Shown here: one piece after another, positions 2,620 to 18,105 of the stretch
How the letters are laid out: each line of letters begins with the position of its first letter
Numbering within the stretch: the stretch's first letter is position 1
IMG/VR virus record: IMGVR_UViG_3300045988_148545
Source of the DNA: a virus
Reading direction: 5' to 3' (one strand)
Length of the DNA stretch: 40,039 bases
Position numbers and translations under genes: made by a program
The notes under the pieces: generated by a model
Database searches by the model: none
The model's input: only the letters and a program-made list of their open reading frames with translations
What the model was told of the DNA's origin: nothing

Positions 2620-3096
2620 CTAATCATTTATATTTTTAATCACACCAACTGAATTATATCCAAACTCAATGATGTAATTTTTGTGTTTTATGTAGCAACC
2701 ATATTTATGCATATAAGCATTTATGGTGTCTGTCAGAAACTGCTCTGTTACGTTTAAGAATTCAGCAGTCTCATAAAAATTAGTGCAGTGGTTCTCATAA
2801 GCTGCAATAATGCTGTCTAGATTAATCAATTTCTGATACCCCCAAATCCTTGCTCTATGCTCCTGTTGGCGATTGGATGCAGAACTCATAGTTAATATAT
2901 TTCCATTAGAAGTATGATGATGTCCCATTTCTTCTGCCAAAACACAACGTTTCTGTGTAGAGTTTTCCAAACTATCACTTATACCAACAACACCGTCACA
3001 ATACAACCCTTTGATATTTGGGCTGTCAAAAGAATAATCTACAACTTTTATACCATCCTCGCAGGCTTCTGATTCTAATTGTTCTAACTGGTTCAA
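2620..3096 (-). CDS. ImmA/IrrE-family (DUF955-like) metallopeptidase, putative anti-repressor protease
   Basis: 158 aa, directly downstream of the XRE repressor as in ImmR/ImmA pairs. The motif region is LAEEMGHHH, i.e. EEMGH in place of canonical HExxH. Confidence 0.7.
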   Translation of the reverse strand: MNQLEQLESEACEDGIKVVDYSFDSPNIKGLYCDGVVGISDSLENSTQKRCVLAEEMGHHHTSNGNILTMSSASNRQQEHRARIWGYQKLINLDSIIAAYENHCTNFYETAEFLNVTEQFLTDTINAYMHKYGCYIKHKNYIIEFGYNSVGVIKNIND

Positions 3097-3545: not shown

Positions 3546-3574
3546 TTGACATAGGTACACAAAACGTGTACAAT
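3546..3574 (+). promoter_or_regulatory. Early (lytic) promoter TTGACA-17 nt-TACAAT
   Basis: Consensus -35 at 3546-3551, exact 17-nt spacer, -10 at 3569-3574. It is divergent from the repressor gene. Confidence 0.65.
3555..3571. promoter_or_regulatory. Operator candidate: perfect palindrome GTACAC-N5-GTGTAC inside the early-promoter spacer
   Basis: Read directly. It occupies the spacer between the -35 and -10 elements. Related half-sites (ACAC-N5-GTG/CGT) occur at 3500-3516, 4077-4093 and 4110-4123. Confidence 0.55.
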
Positions 3575-12856: not shown

Positions 12857-13258
12857 ATGGCAAAGTTATCAAGGGAAGAACAGGCTAGAAGAGAAGGAGA
12901 AGCATACGCATACAAACTTGTTAAGGAAAAGGGCATAGAAGCTTTAGAGGAAGATTTGAGAATGAGAAACATATTCAACATCCCCATCAGGGTATCCAGA
13001 AATGATTTGTTCAAGGCTGATGAAAGACTGACACAATTCATTCTGCTGGAATGTTTAGTGACATTAAGAGACTATTTTGGATTTGGAAGAAAAAGAGCAT
13101 TAAGATTCAAGGAATGCTTTGAAAAGAAATGTCAGCTAATAGCAGAAGATTGGACGAGCTGGGCAGACCAAGCATGGATAGTTGCGACAGAGCTGGGGAT
13201 TGAGTTCCCAAAGGAAGTACAGGAAGAATTTGCCAAGAGAAGCGGAGAAACAAAATAG
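12857..13258 (+). CDS. Hypothetical protein (133 aa)
   Basis: ORF in the gene train with a GGAGGGA-type SD. No motif recognised. Confidence 0.7.
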   Translation: MAKLSREEQARREGEAYAYKLVKEKGIEALEEDLRMRNIFNIPIRVSRNDLFKADERLTQFILLECLVTLRDYFGFGRKRALRFKECFEKKCQLIAEDWTSWADQAWIVATELGIEFPKEVQEEFAKRSGETK

Positions 13259-13290
13259 AAAATGTTAAGAAATGTTAAGGAGTGAGAGGA

Positions 13291-13464
13291 ATGTTAAATA
13301 TTGAGAAATATAAGGCAATGCTAATAGGCATACTAGCGATTGGGAATATATGGATTTTAATTAACATATTTGACAGTGATGTATATGCATATATTTTTCT
13401 GGCAGAGTGCTTAATTGCAATTTTTATATTTATCGTTTGGATAGCATATCACGCTATAGGTTGA
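13291..13464 (+). CDS. Small membrane protein (two TM helices)
   Basis: ATG 13291 sits 8 nt after AAGGAG. Hydrophobic segments LIGILAIGNIWILINI and IFLAECLIAIFIFIVWIAY. Confidence 0.55.
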   Translation: MLNIEKYKAMLIGILAIGNIWILINIFDSDVYAYIFLAECLIAIFIFIVWIAYHAIG

Positions 13465-13478
13465 AAGGAGATGGAAAG

Positions 13479-13718
13479 ATGAAGATTGAAGATAACAGAA
13501 GTAATTTAAGAAAATTCGAAGAACTAGTAGTCGGAGATGTATTTGAATTTGAAAGCAATTATTATCTAAAAACGAAAGAAATTAATGATAGAAAGAGCTC
13601 AGCGTCTTATATGACATATAATGCTGTAAATATTAATTCTTCCTGTGCTGGAGAATTATTCTATTTCAAAGATAATCTTGTACATTTATTAGATAATGTA
13701 ACATTAGTGTTGAATTAA
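13479..13718 (+). CDS. Hypothetical protein (79 aa)
   Basis: I chose internal ATG 13479 after AAAGGAG. The upstream part of the ORF-track ORF overlaps the previous gene. Confidence 0.6.
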   Translation: MKIEDNRSNLRKFEELVVGDVFEFESNYYLKTKEINDRKSSASYMTYNAVNINSSCAGELFYFKDNLVHLLDNVTLVLN

Positions 13719-13731
13719 GGAGAAATAAGGA

Positions 13732-13968
13732 ATGAAAGAGCAGAAAGCGATAACACAGGAAGAAGCAATCAAACGTTTAAAAGAAAGCAGATTTACTATT
13801 CAGCCATACAACTATATGAACCAAGCATTAGATATGGCAATCTCAGCCCTTGAAAAGCAGGAAAAAATTTCAAGAACAGTTCTTAAAGGAAAATATTTTT
13901 GTCCAAGATGTAAATGCTTAATGATTCATTCAGGCTACTGTAAAAATTGCGGACAAAATACATATTAG
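13732..13968 (+). CDS. Hypothetical protein with C-terminal zinc ribbon (CPRC...CKNC)
   Basis: 78 aa, SD AAGGAG. Confidence 0.65.
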   Translation: MKEQKAITQEEAIKRLKESRFTIQPYNYMNQALDMAISALEKQEKISRTVLKGKYFCPRCKCLMIHSGYCKNCGQNTY

Positions 13969-13985
13969 ATTGGAGTTATTTATAA

Positions 13986-14258
13986 ATGTTGCACATATTA
14001 ATTCTTGTATTTGTAGGAATAGGGATTGCAACCATATTTATTCATATAGTTAAAATTTTAATTTTTTTGTTTTCTAAAATAAAAAAGCGAATGAAATATG
14101 AACACAAGATTAAATTTCTTTGCAAACATATCTATGAAATTAATTCAATTTATGGAGACGGAGAAGTTAAAGTTACTTGTCGCAGATGTGGTAAGAAAAA
14201 GTTTATACGATTTAGCTCTAAATCTCTTACAGAGTTTCGAATAGGAGGGAAGAAATGA
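13986..14258 (+). CDS. Membrane-anchored small protein with C-terminal CxxC motif
   Basis: 90 aa. N-terminal TM segment ILILVFVGIGIATIFIHIVKILIFLF. CRRCGKK lies near the C terminus. Confidence 0.55.
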   Translation: MLHILILVFVGIGIATIFIHIVKILIFLFSKIKKRMKYEHKIKFLCKHIYEINSIYGDGEVKVTCRRCGKKKFIRFSSKSLTEFRIGGKK

Positions 14259-14560
14259 GATTAATAGATGCAGACAAATTAATTTTACATTTAAATGATT
14301 TTATGCTGCAGCAAAGCCCTATTGATGTGCAAGATATTGAAAGTATAAACGTAAGTGCAGTAATTCAAGATTGCATAAAAGCGATTGAAAATCAACCGAC
14401 AGCATACGATGTGGATAAGGTCATAGAAGAAATAGAAGAATGGACAGCAAGGATAAATGTAATTAATGATAATAGCGGTAAAGTAGGACAAGTTGATGTT
14501 ATAGGCTCAAATAAAGCAATTAAGATTGTGGAAGGTAGTGGAGTAAGTGGCGATAATTAA
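14255..14560 (+). CDS. Hypothetical protein (101 aa)
   Basis: ATGA start/stop overlap with the previous gene, SD GGAGGGA. It begins MRLIDADKL; no motif recognised. Confidence 0.7.
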   Translation: MRLIDADKLILHLNDFMLQQSPIDVQDIESINVSAVIQDCIKAIENQPTAYDVDKVIEEIEEWTARINVINDNSGKVGQVDVIGSNKAIKIVEGSGVSGDN

Positions 14561-14656
14561 CACATTGGCAATAGTCCTGGTAATTGGAGCAGTGTTCGTC
14601 TTGTGGGCGATATGTAAGTTGCAGGATAAGGATTAGAAACAAAGGTACATTGACAA

Positions 14657-14685
14657 TTGAATATTGGTAGTTGGAATGGTATAAT
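14657..14685 (+). promoter_or_regulatory. Strong sigma-70-like promoter TTGAAT-17 nt-TGgTATAAT (extended -10) for the moron gene
   Basis: -35 at 14657-14662, TG at 14677-14678 and consensus TATAAT at 14680-14685. An overlapping TTGACA lies at 14650-14655. Confidence 0.65.
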
Positions 14686-14723
14686 TTAAAAATAAATATT
14701 TAGAAGTTGTAAAGGAGTTATAT

Positions 14724-15089
14724 ATGGAGAATAAAACAAAATTTACAGAGATTGGAAAGTGGAATGATAGACTGGAAATGTTCGGATATGATATTATGTC
14801 ACTTATTTCATTAGGAGAATCAGAAAGAGTTGATGATATAATTTCACATTTTGAAGATGGAGATGTTGTTCGCTACATAATGAACAAATACAAGGAAAAT
14901 ATGATGTTTGTTTATGAAGGATGCACATATAATATAAATGATTGGGAAGAAGTTTTTGAACAATATTCGTATATGACATATGGACATGATGTAAGAAGAA
15001 AAATGGGGCTTATTGATAAAGAAAAAGACGGATTACTCTTATTGTTGTCGATTATTCTGGATGAAGTTTCAAATAGAAAATATAAGTAA
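14724..15089 (+). CDS. Moron-like gene: acidic 121-aa protein of unknown function with its own promoter and terminator
   Basis: ATG preceded by AAAGGAG. Bracketed by the promoter at 14657-14685 and the terminator at 15098-15130. Confidence 0.75.
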   Translation: MENKTKFTEIGKWNDRLEMFGYDIMSLISLGESERVDDIISHFEDGDVVRYIMNKYKENMMFVYEGCTYNINDWEEVFEQYSYMTYGHDVRRKMGLIDKEKDGLLLLLSIILDEVSNRKYK

Positions 15090-15097
15090 ATAACAGA

Positions 15098-15130
15098 CCA
15101 ACTACCAATATTCGGTGGTTGGTTTTTTTT
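15098..15130 (+). terminator. Rho-independent terminator
   Basis: CCAACTACC-aatattc-GGTGGTTGG forms 9 pairs (one G.U) and is followed by T8 (15123-15130). Confidence 0.85.
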
Positions 15131-15583
15131 ATGCAGAAAAATAGAGAAAGGATTGAGAGTTTGGAAGAAATGACAGCAAAGGAATGCTTGAATCAGGTTA
15201 GAAATCTTGAATCTAAGATGAAAATTCTAAAAGAAGAGATAGATGCCCTAAGGGAAATGGTGGTGAGTACTGGAGCAATCCAACAGGGCGAAAGGGTACT
15301 GTCTTCAGGAACGCAGGATAAGATGGCAGAAACAATCTGTAAGATTAATGAAAAGGAATGTGAATGGAATGATTTAATGCGTGAATTTGCTTTAGCCAGA
15401 GCAAACGTAATAATCAACATACAGAAGTTAAACAATCCTGAATATGAGCAGATTTTGTACAAGAGATACTGCCAGAGCAAGAAATGGGAAGAGATAGCAT
15501 TGGAGATGAATTATACATACCAGTGGGTATGCAAATTACACGGCAGAGCTCTATTAGAACTTGATAAAGTATTAAACAATTGA
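15131..15583 (+). CDS. Late-gene transcriptional activator candidate (sigma-70 region-4-like HTH; ArpU/RinA/DUF1492-like)
   Basis: About 150 aa. N-terminal coiled coil and C-terminal HTH KWEEIALEMNYTYQWVCKLHGRALLEL. Positioned just upstream of the terminase genes. The start is uncertain: ATG 15131 has a poor SD. Confidence 0.65.
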   Translation: MQKNRERIESLEEMTAKECLNQVRNLESKMKILKEEIDALREMVVSTGAIQQGERVLSSGTQDKMAETICKINEKECEWNDLMREFALARANVIINIQKLNNPEYEQILYKRYCQSKKWEEIALEMNYTYQWVCKLHGRALLELDKVLNN

Positions 15584-15706
15584 TAGAAGTTTATATTAAT
15601 CAGTGCTAAAATGATAGAGTAAAGGGTAAAACAGAAAAGGGAATTTTTTGTTATCTTTTGTTTATCTGAATGAAACCCTCTAAAAGTATTTATGGTAAAA
15701 CGTCTT

Positions 15707-15732
15707 AAGGCAGTCGAAAGGCTGTCTTTTTT
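15707..15732 (+). terminator. Terminator-like hairpin + T-run
   Basis: AAGGCAG-tcgaaagg-CTGTCTT forms 7 pairs (one G.U). A T-tract follows, extending to 15732. Confidence 0.45.
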
Positions 15733-15752
15733 CGTAGGAAAATAGGAGAAAA

Positions 15753-16094
15753 ATGCAGGATAAAAAAGTAAATATATTAGGATCAGAATACACAATTAAA
15801 TACGATGTTCCAGATGAGCAAATGCCTGAAGGTTCAGACGGCATTATGGATTATTCAATAAAAACAATTAAAATTGCAGAATTGGTACAAGAGAAAGATT
15901 CAGTAAGAGATTTGCAGTTATACATGAAACAGGTAGTTAGACACGAAATAATACATGCGTTTTTATATGAATCAGGATTATGGAGTAACAGTAATTCGTC
16001 AGATTGTTGGGCACTGAACGAAGAAATGGTGGATTGGTTTGCTATTCAATTTCCTAAAATATTTGATGCTTTTAAAGAAGCAGAGTGCTTATAA
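15753..16094 (+). CDS. Small HExxH-motif protein (putative zinc metallopeptidase), function unknown
   Basis: 113 aa. VVRHEIIHAFLYESG contains HEIIH plus a downstream Glu. SD AGGAGA. Confidence 0.7.
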   Translation: MQDKKVNILGSEYTIKYDVPDEQMPEGSDGIMDYSIKTIKIAELVQEKDSVRDLQLYMKQVVRHEIIHAFLYESGLWSNSNSSDCWALNEEMVDWFAIQFPKIFDAFKEAECL

Positions 16095-16124
16095 AATAAA
16101 TTCGGTAAGAAAGGAGCGGTTGCA

Positions 16125-16721
16125 GTGACTGACAGACAAGTTATATTTGCAAATGAATATTTAATTGATCTGAATGGAACAAGGGCGTATAAGGAAGCAT
16201 ATCCACACGTCAAAAATGATAATACAGCAGCAGCGGCAGCCGCTCGTCTTATGAATGTTCCGGAGATTAAGGAATACATAGATGAAAGAATTAAGGACAG
16301 GCTGGAAAGAATTGAGGTTACGCAGGATGATGTGATTCAGGAGCTTGCAGCAGTTGCCTTTGCCAATGGTTCTGAGTATGCCAAGGTTGTGACTAAGCCG
16401 GTGATGATGAAGACACCGGATGGTGATTATGTCCCGGCATTGGATAGTGAAGGAAATCAGATGTATTATCAGGCAGTTGAGATTACTGAAACTGATGAGC
16501 TTTCAAGAAGACAGATTAAGGCTATTTCAGGTATTAAGCAGGGTAAGAATGGAATAGAGCTGACTACCTATGACAAGGTAAAGGCTTTGGAACTGTTGGG
16601 AAGACATTTAGGAATGTTTAAGGATAAGGTTGAGGTGTCAGGAAATGTTAATAATCCTTTTGAGGGATTAAGTACTGAACAACTGCTTAGATTGGCAGGT
16701 GAGGACCTTGAATCTGAATAA
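16125..16721 (+). CDS. terS: Terminase small subunit
   Basis: 198 aa. The N terminus, MTDRQVIFANEYLIDLNGTRAYKEAYPHVKNDNTAAAAAARLMNVPEIKEYI, is typical of Terminase_2-type small subunits. GTG start sits 8 nt after AAGGAG. Confidence 0.88.
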   Translation: MTDRQVIFANEYLIDLNGTRAYKEAYPHVKNDNTAAAAAARLMNVPEIKEYIDERIKDRLERIEVTQDDVIQELAAVAFANGSEYAKVVTKPVMMKTPDGDYVPALDSEGNQMYYQAVEITETDELSRRQIKAISGIKQGKNGIELTTYDKVKALELLGRHLGMFKDKVEVSGNVNNPFEGLSTEQLLRLAGEDLESE

Positions 16722-18105
16722 GAATTTAATAAAGCTTTATGCAAGGGTAGAGCTGGCAAGAAGAAATTTTTGGCAGTACTGCAAATTAAAGGCTCCTGAC
16801 TTCTACAAGGAAGACAGGGGTTTTTTACGTGATTTCTGTAATGAGTTGCAGCAGTTCATAAAATCAGATTATGAAGTAATGGTTGTTAATATGCCACCAA
16901 GACATGGAAAGTCTAGAACTGTTGGCAATTTTGTTGAATGGGTTCTTGGAAATGACCAAACACAGAAGATTATGACAGGCTCATACAATGAAACATTGTC
17001 TACAACGTTTTCAAAGGGCGTGAGAAACACGATTCTTGAAACAAAGGCAGATGAAAACAAGGCTGTTTATTCAGATGTGTTCCCGGGAGTAACCATTAAA
17101 CGTGGTGATGGTGCAATGAATATGTGGTCACTTGAAAATGGCTATAACAATTATTTGGCAACATCCCCAACAGGAACGGCAACAGGTTTTGGTGCAACGT
17201 TAATGATTATTGATGACTTGATTAAGTCAGCACTGGAAGCTAATAATGCAAATATTCTGGATAATCATTGGACCTGGTTTACGGACACAATGATGTCAAG
17301 ACTTGAAGAGGGGGGCAAGATTATTATTGTAATGACAAGATGGCATAGTTTGGATTTGGCTGGCAGGGCATTGGAACACTTTAAGAGCATAGGCGTAAAG
17401 GTAAGGCATATATGCTATAAGGCTGTTAAGGAAGATGGAACAATGCTTTGTCCTGAAATTTTGTCAAAAAGGTCATACGAAAATAAAAAGATGTCAATGG
17501 GAATAGACATTGCAGAAGCGAACTACCAGCAGAATCCTATTGACATAAAGGGAAGAATGTACACTTCATTTAAGACGTATAAGGAAGCACCACAGTTTAA
17601 GCAGATTAGAAATTACACGGATACAGCAGATGAAGGTAAGGATTACCTGTGCAGTATTAATTATGGTGTAACTTTTGACAATGAAGCGTATGTTCTTGAT
17701 TTGATATACACTCAGGAACCAATGGAAGTAACAGAGCCGTTAACTGCCAAGCTGTTATTTGATGGAAATGTTAATGTTGCAAGAATTGAATCAAATAATG
17801 GTGGTAGAGGTTTTGCAAGAAGTGTTAAGCGAATACTTCAGGAGGAGCTTAAAAGCAATAAGACAGTTATTAAATGGTTTACACAGCATAACAACAAGAA
17901 TGCGAGAATTTTTTCAAATTCAGCGTGGGTAATGCAACACATATATTTCCCGGAAGACTGGAAGAACAGATGGCCCGATTATTACAAGGCTATGTCAAGG
18001 TATCAGAGAGAGGGAAAAAATGACCACGATGATGCACAGGACGCAACTACAGGCATTGCAGAGGACTGTGCAAAGAAGTCTGATGGATTATCAGTATTAA
18101 AGTAA
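16699..18105 (+). CDS. terL: Terminase large subunit
   Basis: 468 aa. P-loop-like PPRHGKS, Walker B LMIIDDL, and a C-terminal RNaseH-like nuclease region with acidic residues. It overlaps terS. Confidence 0.9.
   Translation: MRTLNLNKNLIKLYARVELARRNFWQYCKLKAPDFYKEDRGFLRDFCNELQQFIKSDYEVMVVNMPPRHGKSRTVGNFVEWVLGNDQTQKIMTGSYNETLSTTFSKGVRNTILETKADENKAVYSDVFPGVTIKRGDGAMNMWSLENGYNNYLATSPTGTATGFGATLMIIDDLIKSALEANNANILDNHWTWFTDTMMSRLEEGGKIIIVMTRWHSLDLAGRALEHFKSIGVKVRHICYKAVKEDGTMLCPEILSKRSYENKKMSMGIDIAEANYQQNPIDIKGRMYTSFKTYKEAPQFKQIRNYTDTADEGKDYLCSINYGVTFDNEAYVLDLIYTQEPMEVTEPLTAKLLFDGNVNVARIESNNGGRGFARSVKRILQEELKSNKTVIKWFTQHNNKNARIFSNSAWVMQHIYFPEDWKNRWPDYYKAMSRYQREGKNDHDDAQDATTGIAEDCAKKSDGLSVLK

Follow-up and report, generated by a model that had tools for sequence, protein, structure and literature searches.

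In classical attenuators (the trp and pyr leaders, T-boxes and riboswitch platforms), an intrinsic terminator and a more stable antiterminator helix that uses the 5' arm of the terminator are competing alternatives that exclude each other, and which of them forms is settled during transcription. The antiterminator strand is tens of nucleotides away at most, and the choice depends on a ligand, tRNA, protein or ribosome. To our knowledge, known antiterminators adjoin their terminators. In a second group of systems, namely λ N/nut (including the fate of pI versus pL transcripts at tI/sib), HK022 put and Tn916 canT, an RNA acting in cis and found only in the transcripts of particular promoters lets these pass terminators at which others stop. 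In Tn916 an insulating terminator, T1, shields element genes from unwanted transcription (PMC11658703). In all of these systems RNA polymerase is modified, acts processively and passes heterologous terminators.

The fold-back inhibition of Davis, Simons and Kleckner (1985) reportedly protects the IS10 and IS50 transposases from external promoters. Read-in transcripts carry an extra upstream segment, missing from the transcript of the element itself, that pairs downstream, so that the RNA remembers its promoter of origin; the pairing is short-range, hides the ribosome-binding site and silences these transcripts. Pairing over longer distances occurs in rRNA operons, where the two strands of a processing stem lie 1.5-3 kb apart, pair in the nascent transcript and bracket a functional unit, and such pairing is therefore feasible in vivo. 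The rRNA stems are RNase III substrates, are aided by the Nus/boxA antitermination complex and do not compete with a terminator.

Morons are promoter-gene-terminator units in phage genomes (PMC3594210). A moron with a constitutive promoter and a strong terminator of its own inside a phage operon poses a puzzle: the terminator should cut off the genes behind it, and the promoter should activate lethal lytic genes in a lysogen. The moron concept includes no device that would relieve the polarity of the moron terminator on the host operon. Here we describe a locus that, judging from sequence comparisons, is probably a plug-in slot for accessory genes in which the terminator sorts transcripts by their start site through pairing with an upstream element (UE). 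A literature search found no published description of such a device.

The cargo unit and its surroundings

The DNA analysed (hereafter the window) is a 40,039-nt stretch of a temperate phage of Lachnospiraceae, and its relevant features are collected in Table 1. Positions 13000-17000 had no megablast match among GenBank phages, and a tRNA scan found no tRNA. Genes for a repressor, an ImmA-like protein and a serine integrase lie on the minus strand to the left of a candidate early lytic promoter, the presumed origin of UE-carrying transcripts. Between this promoter and position 15095 we found no strong plus-strand terminator, the first being the one at 15098. In comparison with two phages that have an empty site (L019 and L036), the insertion has its left edge at the ORF of the 29-aa peptide; both phages keep this ORF, directly abutting the activator gene, and lack the whole unit, UE and terminator included.

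Table 1. Features of the cargo slot and its context in the window (UE, upstream element)
Feature	Position	Strand	Description
Candidate early lytic promoter	3546..3574	+	TTGACA-17-TACAAT, 11/12 match; divergent from repressor gene
Last early-operon ORF before the slot	14547..14636	+	Hydrophobic 29-aa peptide
Conserved block GTACATTGACAATT	14645..14658	+	Just 5' of UE; contains TTGACA 14650-14655; kept in protein-recruited loci
Predicted cargo promoter	14657..14685	+	-35 TTGAAT 14657-14662, 17-nt spacer, extended -10 TGgTATAAT 14677-14685
UE, putative antiterminator strand GAATATTGGTAGTTGG	14659..14674	+	Exact reverse complement of 15098-15113
Cargo gene	14724..15089	+	121 aa, acidic, pI 4.76; one of >100 alternative cargos at the slot
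Terminator 5' arm CCAACTACC + loop AATATTC	15098..15106 + 15107..15113	+	Proposed UE target
Terminator 3' arm GGTGGTTGG + U8 tract	15114..15122 + 15123..15130	+	One G·U with 5' arm
Putative late activator, sigma-region-4-like (LtrA-like)	15161..15583	+	phrog_36 match
Second intrinsic terminator	15707..15735	+	Between activator gene and packaging/late operon

The cargo gene has a Shine-Dalgarno sequence (AAGGAG) 6 nt upstream. Searches of its product against Pfam, PHROG, NCBIfam, PADLOC and PDB sequences returned nothing usable, in agreement with an initial annotation made from the sequence alone, which had described an acidic 121-aa protein without recognisable motif. The gene is present in only four contigs, and the activators behind it are 99% and 59% identical. 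The same annotation had assigned the gene a near-consensus promoter and a strong intrinsic terminator with a T8 tract. As a statement about the sequence the former is correct: the predicted promoter is, by consensus match only, the sole plus-strand candidate here with 10/12 positions plus an extended -10. A better alternative -35 hexamer (TTGACA) lies just 5' of TTGAAT. Transcription is predicted to start at ~14692, on the 3' side of the UE and ~17 nt past it. Folding confirmed the terminator (-16.8 kcal/mol, z = -5.3), which forms a 12-pair stem followed by U8. The locus thus has what defines a moron, namely its own predicted promoter, its own intrinsic terminator, and presence or absence among close relatives between conserved neighbours.

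The gene behind the terminator is assumed, by analogy, to encode an Ltr-type late activator. Such activators of Gram-positive phages are small proteins whose C-terminus resembles sigma region 4 and whose genes immediately precede the gene for the terminase small subunit (PMC3753634). The product in the window matches phrog_36 ('transcriptional regulator') at 1.7e-17, and it matches Sigma70_r4 at 0.009 (below the Pfam cut-off) and the sigma-70 family at 0.0011 (also below cut-off); terS lies 540 nt downstream of the gene. The initial annotation placed a late activator gene downstream of the terminator, but the ATG at 15131 that it took as the start has no Shine-Dalgarno sequence and is disfavoured. 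The gene probably starts at the TTG at 15161, which follows a Shine-Dalgarno sequence (GAAAGGA, 15146-15152) and lines up with the GTG at which the gene starts in cassette-less relatives. With either start codon the gap between terminator and activator gene is too short for a promoter, and the activator is reachable only by transcripts that pass the terminator.

A 16-nt inverted repeat links promoter and terminator

The UE lies within the predicted cargo promoter, between -35 and -10, and its perfect 16-nt complementarity to the terminator's 5' arm and loop, first seen in the initial annotation, was reproduced at a spacing of 424 nt. It is the one perfect 16-nt inverted repeat with a spacing of up to 500 nt in the window, where shuffled sequences gave a mean of 0.03, so a chance match is indeed very unlikely, as had been argued. 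At 88% identity the repeat can be followed over 24 nt. The RNA strands form 19 pairs (14656-14674 with 15098-15116), of which those of 14656-14658 involve the first three nucleotides of the terminator 3' arm. The window holds no third copy of the UE at up to three mismatches and no other copy of the conserved block just 5' of it, the phage switch region included. The plus-strand terminators at 15707 and 18762 have upstream complements of only 10/16, which is the background level.

The conserved block, 30 nt overall, is largely single-stranded in predictions and contains the small palindromes CAATTG and AATATT. An Rfam search near 14560-14720 at permissive E values (up to 5) gave sub-threshold noise only. 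As to a sensor of the attenuator kind (a ligand pocket, tRNA, protein site or leader peptide), we found no Rfam family and no anti-antiterminator at the locus, and the UE is ~50% unpaired in the predicted nascent RNA; a factor acting in trans is conceivable. An origin of the UE as a directly repeated copy of the terminator 3' arm (an att core or a duplication) was rejected because the UE departs from the 3' arm exactly at the positions where the 3' arm uses G·U.

The slot in related phages

Related loci were recruited with three independent anchors: the downstream protein, a DNA pattern on the UE side and a DNA pattern on the terminator side, the last of which leaves both UE and 5' arm free. 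With homology of the downstream protein as the sole recruiter, all 58 terminator-bearing loci have a UE, matching at 13-16 of 16 positions. At the 124 unique slots recruited by the UE-side pattern, the best complement within 4 kb averaged 14.15/16, compared with 10.65 for shuffled 16-mers, and was called automatically on a hairpin with a T-run in 110 cases (null, 28/620). The terminator-side pattern gave 49 combinations, 43 of them with at least 13/16 matches and 18 perfect. Altogether the UE/terminator pair is kept in well over a hundred related phage contigs, and prophages of Faecalicatena contorta JCM 6483 and Lachnospira intestinalis CLA-AA-H89B belong to the family. Two loci that appeared to have a terminator without a UE (L299 and L369) were script artefacts at locus ends, and a class of genome matches from contig-end copies of GTTACATGAAAAATAATGAAAAAGA plus a pattern match was discarded as an unrelated repeat.

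In these relatives the UE and the terminator bracket a hypervariable slot with 129 distinct cargos in more than 100 protein clusters, among them nucleases, HEPN proteins, antirepressors and membrane proteins. UE and complement are 204 to 3448 nt apart, with a translated gene between them, and the variable DNA starts right after the UE and stops right before the 5' arm. The slots lie inside runs of co-directional ORFs, and 125 of the 129 cargos are oriented with the operon. Phages with two slots in tandem carry different alleles in the two. The module is gained and lost as a unit and brackets freely exchanged cargo: the comparison of cassette presence and absence suggested by the initial annotation yielded both the two phages that lack the unit and the 129 alternative cargos in the same frame. 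Among family terminators with a UE, a co-directional ORF follows within 300 nt behind 95 and not behind 4; for family terminators without a UE, the corresponding numbers are 0 and 3.

Of 106 distinct UE contexts, 88 have a predicted promoter of the same kind, with the start 9-25 nt on the 3' side of the UE. Since the predicted cargo promoters start 3' of the UE, only transcripts derived from further upstream would carry it, which is what the initial annotation had proposed for this one locus. It had also cast the device as a guard of the late activator. In other phage lineages the same module precedes many unrelated co-directional genes, and the proposed device generalises to an intra-operon moron insulator.

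Covariation of the UE and the terminator

Two independent DNA-anchored scans found at least 10 alleles of the UE/terminator pair with compensatory changes. Across alleles 93-94% of UE:terminator cells are paired and both sides have changed at 8 of the 16 pairs, although the sequences are related and cell counts do not equal independent events. The covariation score is 0.371, compared with 0.170 in shuffled data (0/500), and sliding the register lowers pairing to 18-50%. The terminator stem itself is 99.6% paired, with covariation at 7 of its 9 pairs. The initial annotation had suggested looking for covariation of the two 16-mers in related phages, and had named as evidence against its reading the finding of terminators retained with no complementary or covarying element; the compensated alleles and the 58 loci recruited by protein show the opposite.

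The UE tracks the 5' arm and not the 3' arm, which often pairs by G·U. G/A variation in the 5' arm is met by C/U in the UE (CG 31, UA 27, UG 1) while the 3' arm is a constant U, and there are 97 arm cells in which a G·U of the 3' arm contrasts with a Watson-Crick pair of the UE. The pairing spans the 5' arm, the whole loop, which would otherwise have no function, and three nucleotides of the 3' arm. In the extension pairs (columns 10-12 with 58-60), 176 of 177 cells are paired (58, 59 and 59 of 59 sequences), with UG, CG and UA seen and CA never seen at column 11. The UE and the terminator segment complement each other and evolve together, as a plus-strand pairing that excludes the terminator hairpin.

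The pairing is imperfect in places. About half of the sequences have no pair at the last position of the helix, and several close relatives have, in the half of the UE that pairs with the loop, changes that are not compensated (GAATACTGG, GAATAGAGG) or single arm mismatches (GGTAGGTGG, GATAGTTGG), such that relatives with these variants keep just 7-12 contiguous pairs. We downgraded wobble strand asymmetry from a proof of plus-strand RNA to weak support. The G·U excess in the UE-anchored sample is partly an artefact of a search pattern that forced GG, and the less biased terminator-anchored sample shows a weak excess in the core (14 G·U versus 11 A·C).

Predicted energetics and proposed mechanism

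The initial annotation had held that the 16-bp duplex is stronger than the terminator stem. Calculated energies bear this out, with means of -26.1 kcal/mol for the duplex and -16.2 kcal/mol for the hairpin and the duplex stronger in 99 of 99 combinations. Non-cognate duplexes average -17.7 kcal/mol (GGCTGATAA is an example of a non-cognate UE allele). The co-folding comparison that had been suggested gave a divided result. The transcript started at the cargo promoter is predicted to fold the terminator at 0.999, as expected. With 350-750 nt of additional 5' context, however, the equilibrium ensemble of the full UE-carrying transcript also favours the terminator (0.82-0.99). Therefore, thermodynamics alone gives no readthrough, and the mechanism would have to work kinetically.

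As long as the 3' arm has yet to be synthesised, pairing of the UE with the 5' arm is predicted at 0.99. The two strands are 0.2-3.4 kb apart, however, and would have to meet within the synthesis of the ~16 nt that separates emergence of the 5' arm from that of the 3' arm, which counts against the pairing. If long-range pairing nevertheless beats the adjacent hairpin, this would imply a new way of holding upstream RNA near the polymerase exit channel.

The comparative sequence data support the initial reading of the UE as an antiterminator specific to the promoter of origin. Transcripts from the cargo promoter, starting ~17 nt past the UE, would fold the 9-12 bp hairpin and stop at the U8 tract. 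Because they would stop there, the cargo could be expressed, for example in a lysogen, without run-on into the lytic gene behind it (here the putative late activator). Transcripts from the early promoter would carry the UE, which would capture the 5' arm and the loop as they emerge and form 16-19 bp with them. The resulting helix would also cover the first three nucleotides of the 3' arm and leave that arm no toehold, so that the hairpin would come too late and RNA polymerase would continue. We infer that the pairing lowers termination and acts kinetically, and that its purpose may be to insulate the cargo promoter without making the cargo terminator polar on the operon.

Alternative explanations

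The duplex might be real and yet serve RNA processing or stability, as an RNase III site that excises the cargo mRNA or splits upstream from downstream messages. The covariation would fit any pairing of plus-strand RNA, and a helix of 16-19 bp is close to the size of an RNase III substrate and, like rRNA processing stems, flanks a complete gene. We nevertheless consider this explanation unlikely. In every allele the helix has precisely the terminator 5' arm plus loop as its 3' strand, whereas processing could use neighbouring sequence, and a transcript that has both strands and continues downstream has already escaped the terminator. Furthermore, terminators that lack a UE occur only where nothing co-directional follows, which antitermination predicts and processing does not. 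The two roles are also not mutually exclusive.

It is quite improbable that the segments are DNA-level inverted repeats, either the ends of a mobile cassette or sites of a recombinase that exchanges or inverts the cargo, whose match is kept because one protein recognises both. Inverted repeats of 16-24 nt at cargo boundaries with the variable DNA exactly between them, the extreme diversity of cargos, the occurrence of the same cargo beside diverged flanks, a mostly Watson-Crick UE:5'-arm match, and left and right ends that covary by allele, as transposon ends do, would all suit such an element. However, mobile cassettes with terminal inverted repeats and integron-like elements have in common with the slot only the end repeats: no transposase, integrase or recombinase lies in or beside the slots, whose cargos are small unrelated genes, and comparison with the empty site reveals no target-site duplication and an inserted unit larger than the repeat-bounded segment. 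The slot does not occur in either orientation but is always operon-oriented, with no inverted cargo or inversion junction among the relatives. Whole allele classes keep a UE:5'-arm G·U, which is a mismatch in DNA, and all four pairing-compatible dinucleotides are found opposite one 5'-arm sequence. Because neighbouring genes differ completely between lineages, there is also no co-varying DNA-binding protein available.

A position between -35 and -10 is classic for an operator, and the small palindromes of the conserved block might likewise suggest that a regulator binds both the UE and its inverted copy at the terminator, possibly with DNA looping, to control the promoter or elongation. This seems very improbable to us, given that each of the at least 10 alleles would call for a regulator specificity of its own whereas no neighbouring regulator is conserved across lineages, that there is no further copy at the phage switch region or elsewhere in the window, and that the second copy coincides base for base with the hairpin arm and loop and follows the changes of the arm. 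Finally, although the palindromic loop sequence AATATT means that anything resembling the 3' half automatically complements the 5' half, chance or a functionless scar of cassette insertion (the alternative offered in the initial annotation) is hardly credible in view of the shuffled expectation and of a pair kept over 129 distinct cargos and at least 10 compensated alleles, and the scar is rejected because it would neither covary nor track changes of the 5' arm that the 3' arm does not share.

Comparison with known systems

The preferred reading of the slot, in which the UE acts on the terminator as RNA, can be extended to a more general one that we offer tentatively. Phages of gut Firmicutes may use a portable RNA key, located just upstream of the moron start, that acts through direct co-transcriptional pairing, needs no dedicated protein and opens no terminator but its own, kilobases further downstream. 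The transcript would thereby remember its promoter, orthogonal alleles would be stackable, and an essential lytic operon could take up any accessory gene without suffering polarity or leakage. If this is true, it answers the moron puzzle and extends attenuation from local leaders to the kilobase range, with transcript origin as the sole input. The frame is also a rich accessory-gene hotspot in Lachnospiraceae phages that can be used for finding new cargo, and its natural orthogonal key/terminator pairs would be a parts list of promoter-selective terminators for synthetic biology.

With morons the locus shares a single accessory gene with its own promoter and terminator, presence or absence between related phages, and cargo types typical of morons, such as nucleases, antirepressors and membrane proteins. 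It differs in that the frame of UE and terminator persists while the cargos swap. Fold-back inhibition in IS10 and IS50 relies, like the proposed device, on a memory of the promoter of origin, but the pairing proposed here is long-range, hides a terminator arm instead of a ribosome-binding site and favours read-in transcripts.

The proposed device follows the same logic as λ N/nut, put and canT, but the UE, unlike their RNAs, has a single terminator as its complement, with which it covaries. This specificity and the different alleles of tandem slots suggest direct base pairing and no dedicated protein. A processive antitermination RNA (put, EAR or canT) is disfavoured by the gap between cognate and non-cognate duplex energies and by the lack of a complement at the 15707 terminator, and the structured RNA domain near the promoter that characterises such RNAs has no Rfam match near 14560-14720. 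With classical attenuators the locus shares the exclusive helix that uses the 5' arm, with covariation, but not the strand immediately upstream. Its strand is 0.2-3.4 kb away on the upstream side, beyond a translated gene that can be exchanged, and the choice is apparently set just by whether a transcript starts upstream or downstream of that strand.

Genomic setting of the slot

The window comes from a temperate siphovirus-type phage; in it, an accessory gene (the cargo) sits between an upstream element (UE) and a terminator, a frame that we call the slot. The moron, its terminator and the 16-mer are all as the initial annotation had described them. The integrase, peptidase and repressor genes at the left end are on the − strand. 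Early genes on the + strand run unbroken from the divergent promoter to position 14636, and no strong + strand terminator was found between these two points. The slot terminator is predicted to fold with −16.8 kcal/mol (z = −5.3).

Features of the window around the slot
Feature	Position	Strand	Description
Serine integrase, ImmA-like peptidase, HTH repressor	left end of window		
Divergent promoter	3546-3574		near-consensus; predicted
Hydrophobic peptide gene	14547-14636		before slot
Cargo promoter	14657-14685	+	TTGAAT-17-TGgTATAAT, consensus match
UE	14659-14674	+	GAATATTGGTAGTTGG, exact reverse complement of 15098-15113
Cargo gene	14724-15089	+	121 aa, acidic, pI 4.76, good Shine-Dalgarno
Slot terminator	15098-15130	+	CCAACTACC / AATATTC / GGTGGTTGG, then U8
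Second strong terminator	15707-15735		3' of regulator gene
HExxH protein gene	15753-16094		113 aa, phrog_1233; first gene of late/packaging operon
Terminase subunits, portal	downstream of HExxH protein gene		

The 16-mer has no third copy in the window. Its inverted repeat reaches 24 nt, imperfectly, beyond the 16-nt core, and as RNA it forms 19 pairs, entering the 3' arm of the hairpin by 3 nt. The window holds one perfect 16-nt inverted repeat within 500 nt versus a mean of 0.03 in shuffled sequence, which bears out the earlier judgement that the match is improbable by chance.

The gene 3' of the terminator encodes a small, sigma-region-4-like regulator (phrog_36 match, weak Sigma70_r4 and sigma-70 matches) resembling the LtrA class of late activators (PMC3753634). 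The start first assigned to it, ATG 15131, abuts the U-tract and lacks a Shine-Dalgarno sequence; the start is probably TTG 15161 instead, which follows the Shine-Dalgarno GAAAGGA at a distance of 8 nt and corresponds in alignments to the GTG start of empty-site relatives. Whichever start is used, the U-tract and the gene are too close together for a promoter between them, so the regulator must be transcribed through the terminator. In lineages with allele CCACTAGCC, a homologue of the HExxH protein is encoded directly behind the slot terminator.

A gene for a hydrophobic, basic/acidic-tailed peptide of 29-41 aa is conserved beside the slot (~2916-3003 in the related loci L019/L036, ~2873-2996 in L066, ~2179-2304 in L060). 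In the window and L060 this gene precedes the slot, and in L066 and the L044/L045 group it follows the terminator; slot position thus shifts relative to this gene.

Co-occurrence of the UE and the terminator

Recruitment by the downstream protein alone yielded 68 IMG/VR loci encoding a regulator homologue, 58 of which have a terminator before the gene plus enough upstream DNA. The complementary upstream element sought in these terminator-bearing relatives was present in all 58, in keeping with the initial annotation. Complementarity to the 5' arm plus loop reaches 13-16 of 16 positions at the best upstream site (~11 in shuffled controls), which lies in a shared conserved context (GTACATTGAnAAnTnAATA...). 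The intervening DNA is unrelated between loci, and the UE lies 266-1598 nt from the 5' arm; the window cargo gene was found in just four contigs, beside regulators 99% and 59% identical. In two phages (L019 and L036) the site is empty: the 29-aa peptide gene, the last of the early operon, runs directly into the regulator gene, and promoter block, UE and terminator are all absent. Together, the invariable co-occurrence and the empty sites lacking both elements indicate that UE and terminator are gained and lost together, framing a freely exchanged slot.

A UE-side scan of viral contigs with pattern ACATTGANAANTNAATATTGG, which leaves the arm free, returned at least 119 stretches. The same pattern run on bacteria (one genome per species) matched prophages, mostly in Lachnospiraceae and other Clostridia (isolates include Faecalicatena contorta JCM 6483 and Lachnospira intestinalis), along with roughly 17 chance matches, as expected, and one unrelated repeat. 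A third scan, anchored on the terminator loop, 3' arm and T-run with UE and 5' arm both free, returned at least 120 stretches. Among the matches listed, the best 16-mer complement within 4 kb downstream of 124 unique UE-anchored slots averages 14.15 versus 10.65 for shuffled queries. An automatic call places this complement on the 5' arm of a hairpin with a T-run in 110 of the 124 (null 28/620), and inspection by eye adds about nine more. The terminator-anchored matches listed have an upstream complement of at least 13/16 in 43 of 49 distinct combinations (18 perfect), two of the apparent failures being script artefacts.

The unrelated multi-copy repeat, GTTACATGAAAAATAATGAAAAAGA-ACATTGA..AAATATTGGTAAAAATCCGATAATCGCCCTTGAA, matches the pattern by chance at many contig ends of a few uncultured Clostridia MAGs (CAWVDV, CALXFF, CALXAD, CALXJZ; loci L192-L289, e.g. 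L254 38-120, L249, L283) and probably marks the terminus of a repetitive mobile element at which assemblies break. A G+C-rich element variant, GGGCGCTGAC (L132 11881 and L185 920), has a partly complementary hairpin ~440 nt downstream (GCAGCGCC...GGCGGCGC) without a U-tract and may be a diverged or decayed family member.

The slots hold at least 129 distinct cargos of 188-3432 nt in more than 100 protein clusters, including NYN and HEPN nucleases, antirepressor-type proteins (Rha/ANT/Bro/KilAC), a HicB-like antitoxin, proteins with zinc ribbons and numerous small membrane proteins. Moron and defence hotspots usually hold genes of these kinds. G+C around the window slot (14000-15000) drops to 0.30, against 0.35-0.40 in adjoining early and structural genes, which is consistent with horizontally exchanged cargo. 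Four slots of only 230-450 nt (L110, L120, L158 with allele GGTTAGTGG, and L235) have no + strand ORF of at least 30 aa; their cargo may encode a very short peptide or be a non-coding RNA.

Promoter geometry and operon position

A sigma-70-type promoter with its −35 in the conserved block is predicted in 88 of 106 distinct UE contexts, placing the cargo start 9-25 nt downstream of the UE; allele 5 has a strong predicted promoter ~50 nt downstream. With starts at these predicted positions, RNAs from the cargo promoter would never contain the UE. Among the matches listed, the main ORF follows the operon direction in 125 of 129 cargos; the cargo stop codon lies a median of 11 nt before the 5' arm.

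Only 5 of the 95 terminator-anchored alleles among the matches listed stand in front of a window-type regulator. Most precede many unrelated co-directional genes, within same-strand ORF runs, so the slot appears to be a general intra-operon insulator and not specifically a late-activator gate. The gate proposed initially would apply at the window but not as a specific role, since other lineages have unrelated genes behind the slot.

Among family terminators with enough flanking DNA, a co-directional ORF follows within 300 nt at 95 of those with a UE and is missing at 4; none of the three at which no UE could be recognised (L319; L326, where it is truncated; L363, where it is decayed) has one (~2e-4 at face value, uncorrected for relatedness).

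Where a phage has two slots in tandem (L091 6838 and 8971; L139 1454 and 2746; L143; L156; L163; L004/L060 contigs), their arm alleles always differ: GGCTGATAA with CTATCAGCC comes first, then GGTAGTTGG with CCAACTACC. This points to orthogonality, or to repeats kept different so that they do not recombine.

Covariation of the UE with the 5' arm

The covariation between the two 16-mers foreseen in the initial annotation was found: UE arm and 5' arm occur in at least ten matched versions across relatives.

Matched versions (alleles) of the UE arm and the terminator 5' arm
UE arm	5' arm	Occurrence
GGTAGTTGG	CCAACTACC	window
GACGGTTGG or GGCGGTTGG	CCAACCGTC	
GATGGTTGG or GGTGGTTGG	CCAACCATC	
GGCTAGTGR	CCACTAGCC	
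GGCTGATAA	CTATCAGCC	
GGTTAGTGG	CCACTAACC	
GGTTAGTGT	ACACTAATC	
GGCCAGTAA	CTACTGGCC	
GGTGATTGG	CCAATCATC	
GGCAGTTGG	CCGGCTGTC	

In alignment A1 (59 distinct UE-plus-terminator pairs), the 16 UE:target pairs are 93.1% paired, a percentage inflated by picking partner sites as best complements and controlled with shuffled queries and a slid register. Sliding the register by 1-3 columns lowers pairing to 18-50%, and the covariation score of 0.371 (0.170 shuffled) was reached in 0 of 500 shuffles. Both sides change at eight pairs (114 cells; cell counts here and below overstate independent events because the sequences are related). The terminator stem is 99.6% paired, with covariation at 7 of 9 pairs.

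The key discriminator in these alignments is that the UE tracks the 5' arm and does not copy the 3' arm. One position has G or A in the 5' arm with a corresponding C or U in the UE (CG 31, UA 27, UG 1), and always U in the 3' arm; the next has A in the UE opposite 5'-arm U, and G in the 3' arm. In 97 arm cells the UE makes a Watson-Crick pair and the 3' arm a G·U pair; in 29 it is the other way round. The excess of G·U over A·C mismatches in the UE-anchored set is partly produced by the search pattern. Opposite 5'-arm 'GU', all four pairing-compatible UE dinucleotides occur (AC 9, GC 7, AU 2, GU 1), and C opposite A was never seen there. Pairing spans the loop, conserved though roleless in the hairpin, and extends three pairs into the 3' arm (176 of 177 cells; one pair is UG 26, CG 18, UA 15, CA 0). 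All this is in line with a + strand RNA helix under selection to outcompete the hairpin; a DNA-level repeat would not readily produce it. The full 16-19 bp helix is not strictly required, since uncompensated changes in the half that pairs with the loop are tolerated in several relatives. In L041 (~1387-1430) the terminator loop carries a 7-nt tandem duplication (AATATTCGGTTATTCGG) and the upstream complement is intact.

A helix between UE and 5' arm serving RNA processing or stability could coexist with antitermination; we consider this role unlikely. It does not account for the terminator arm being the target every time, or for the absence of the UE at operon ends alone. DNA-level origins (cassette ends, recombination sites or paired operators) fail: no associated enzyme or regulator was found at the slots, slot orientation is fixed, no target duplication was seen, allele classes contain G·U and neighbours differ completely between lineages. 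Scar and chance are both excluded as sources of the match.

Energetics and proposed mechanism

Cognate duplexes are predicted to average −26.1 kcal/mol, versus −16.2 for the hairpin and −17.7 for non-cognate duplexes, and the duplex is stronger in all 99 combinations. Co-folding of 14640-15135, a short RNA of the early type, gave the long-range helix as minimum-energy structure, and RNA from 14692, the predicted cargo-promoter transcript, folded the terminator, as initially proposed. With longer 5' context, predicted UE:target pairing probability is 0.99 when the 3' arm is not yet made; with the whole terminator present, the equilibrium ensemble favours the hairpin (0.82-0.99). The UE is predicted to be about half unpaired in nascent RNA. 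With more 5' context, the choice between UE and terminator would be kinetic and not thermodynamic.

The promoter-of-origin antiterminator of the initial annotation is the best explanation, and a probable one. Transcript origin would set whether the 5' arm is pre-empted by the UE, whose helix would need to assemble in the brief time before the 3' arm appears and afterwards withstand displacement; covering the loop and first 3'-arm bases might help by removing the toehold.

Comparison with known systems

In IS10, fold-back protects the transposase against read-in transcripts, and the slot device mirrors this with the sign reversed. Competition between antiterminator and terminator is common to attenuators and the slot device, but the latter lacks the adjacency that defines attenuators, and no sensor is apparent in it. 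Its logic is like that of promoter-specific antitermination, as in lambda (N/nut, also the tI/sib case), HK022 (put) and Tn916, with its T1 insulator and the cis RNA canT (PMC11658703); it differs from the lambda, HK022 and Tn916 systems in relying on terminator-specific base pairing and not on polymerase modification. Searches of the full-text literature turned up no published account of a device like this, nor does Rfam contain a matching family.
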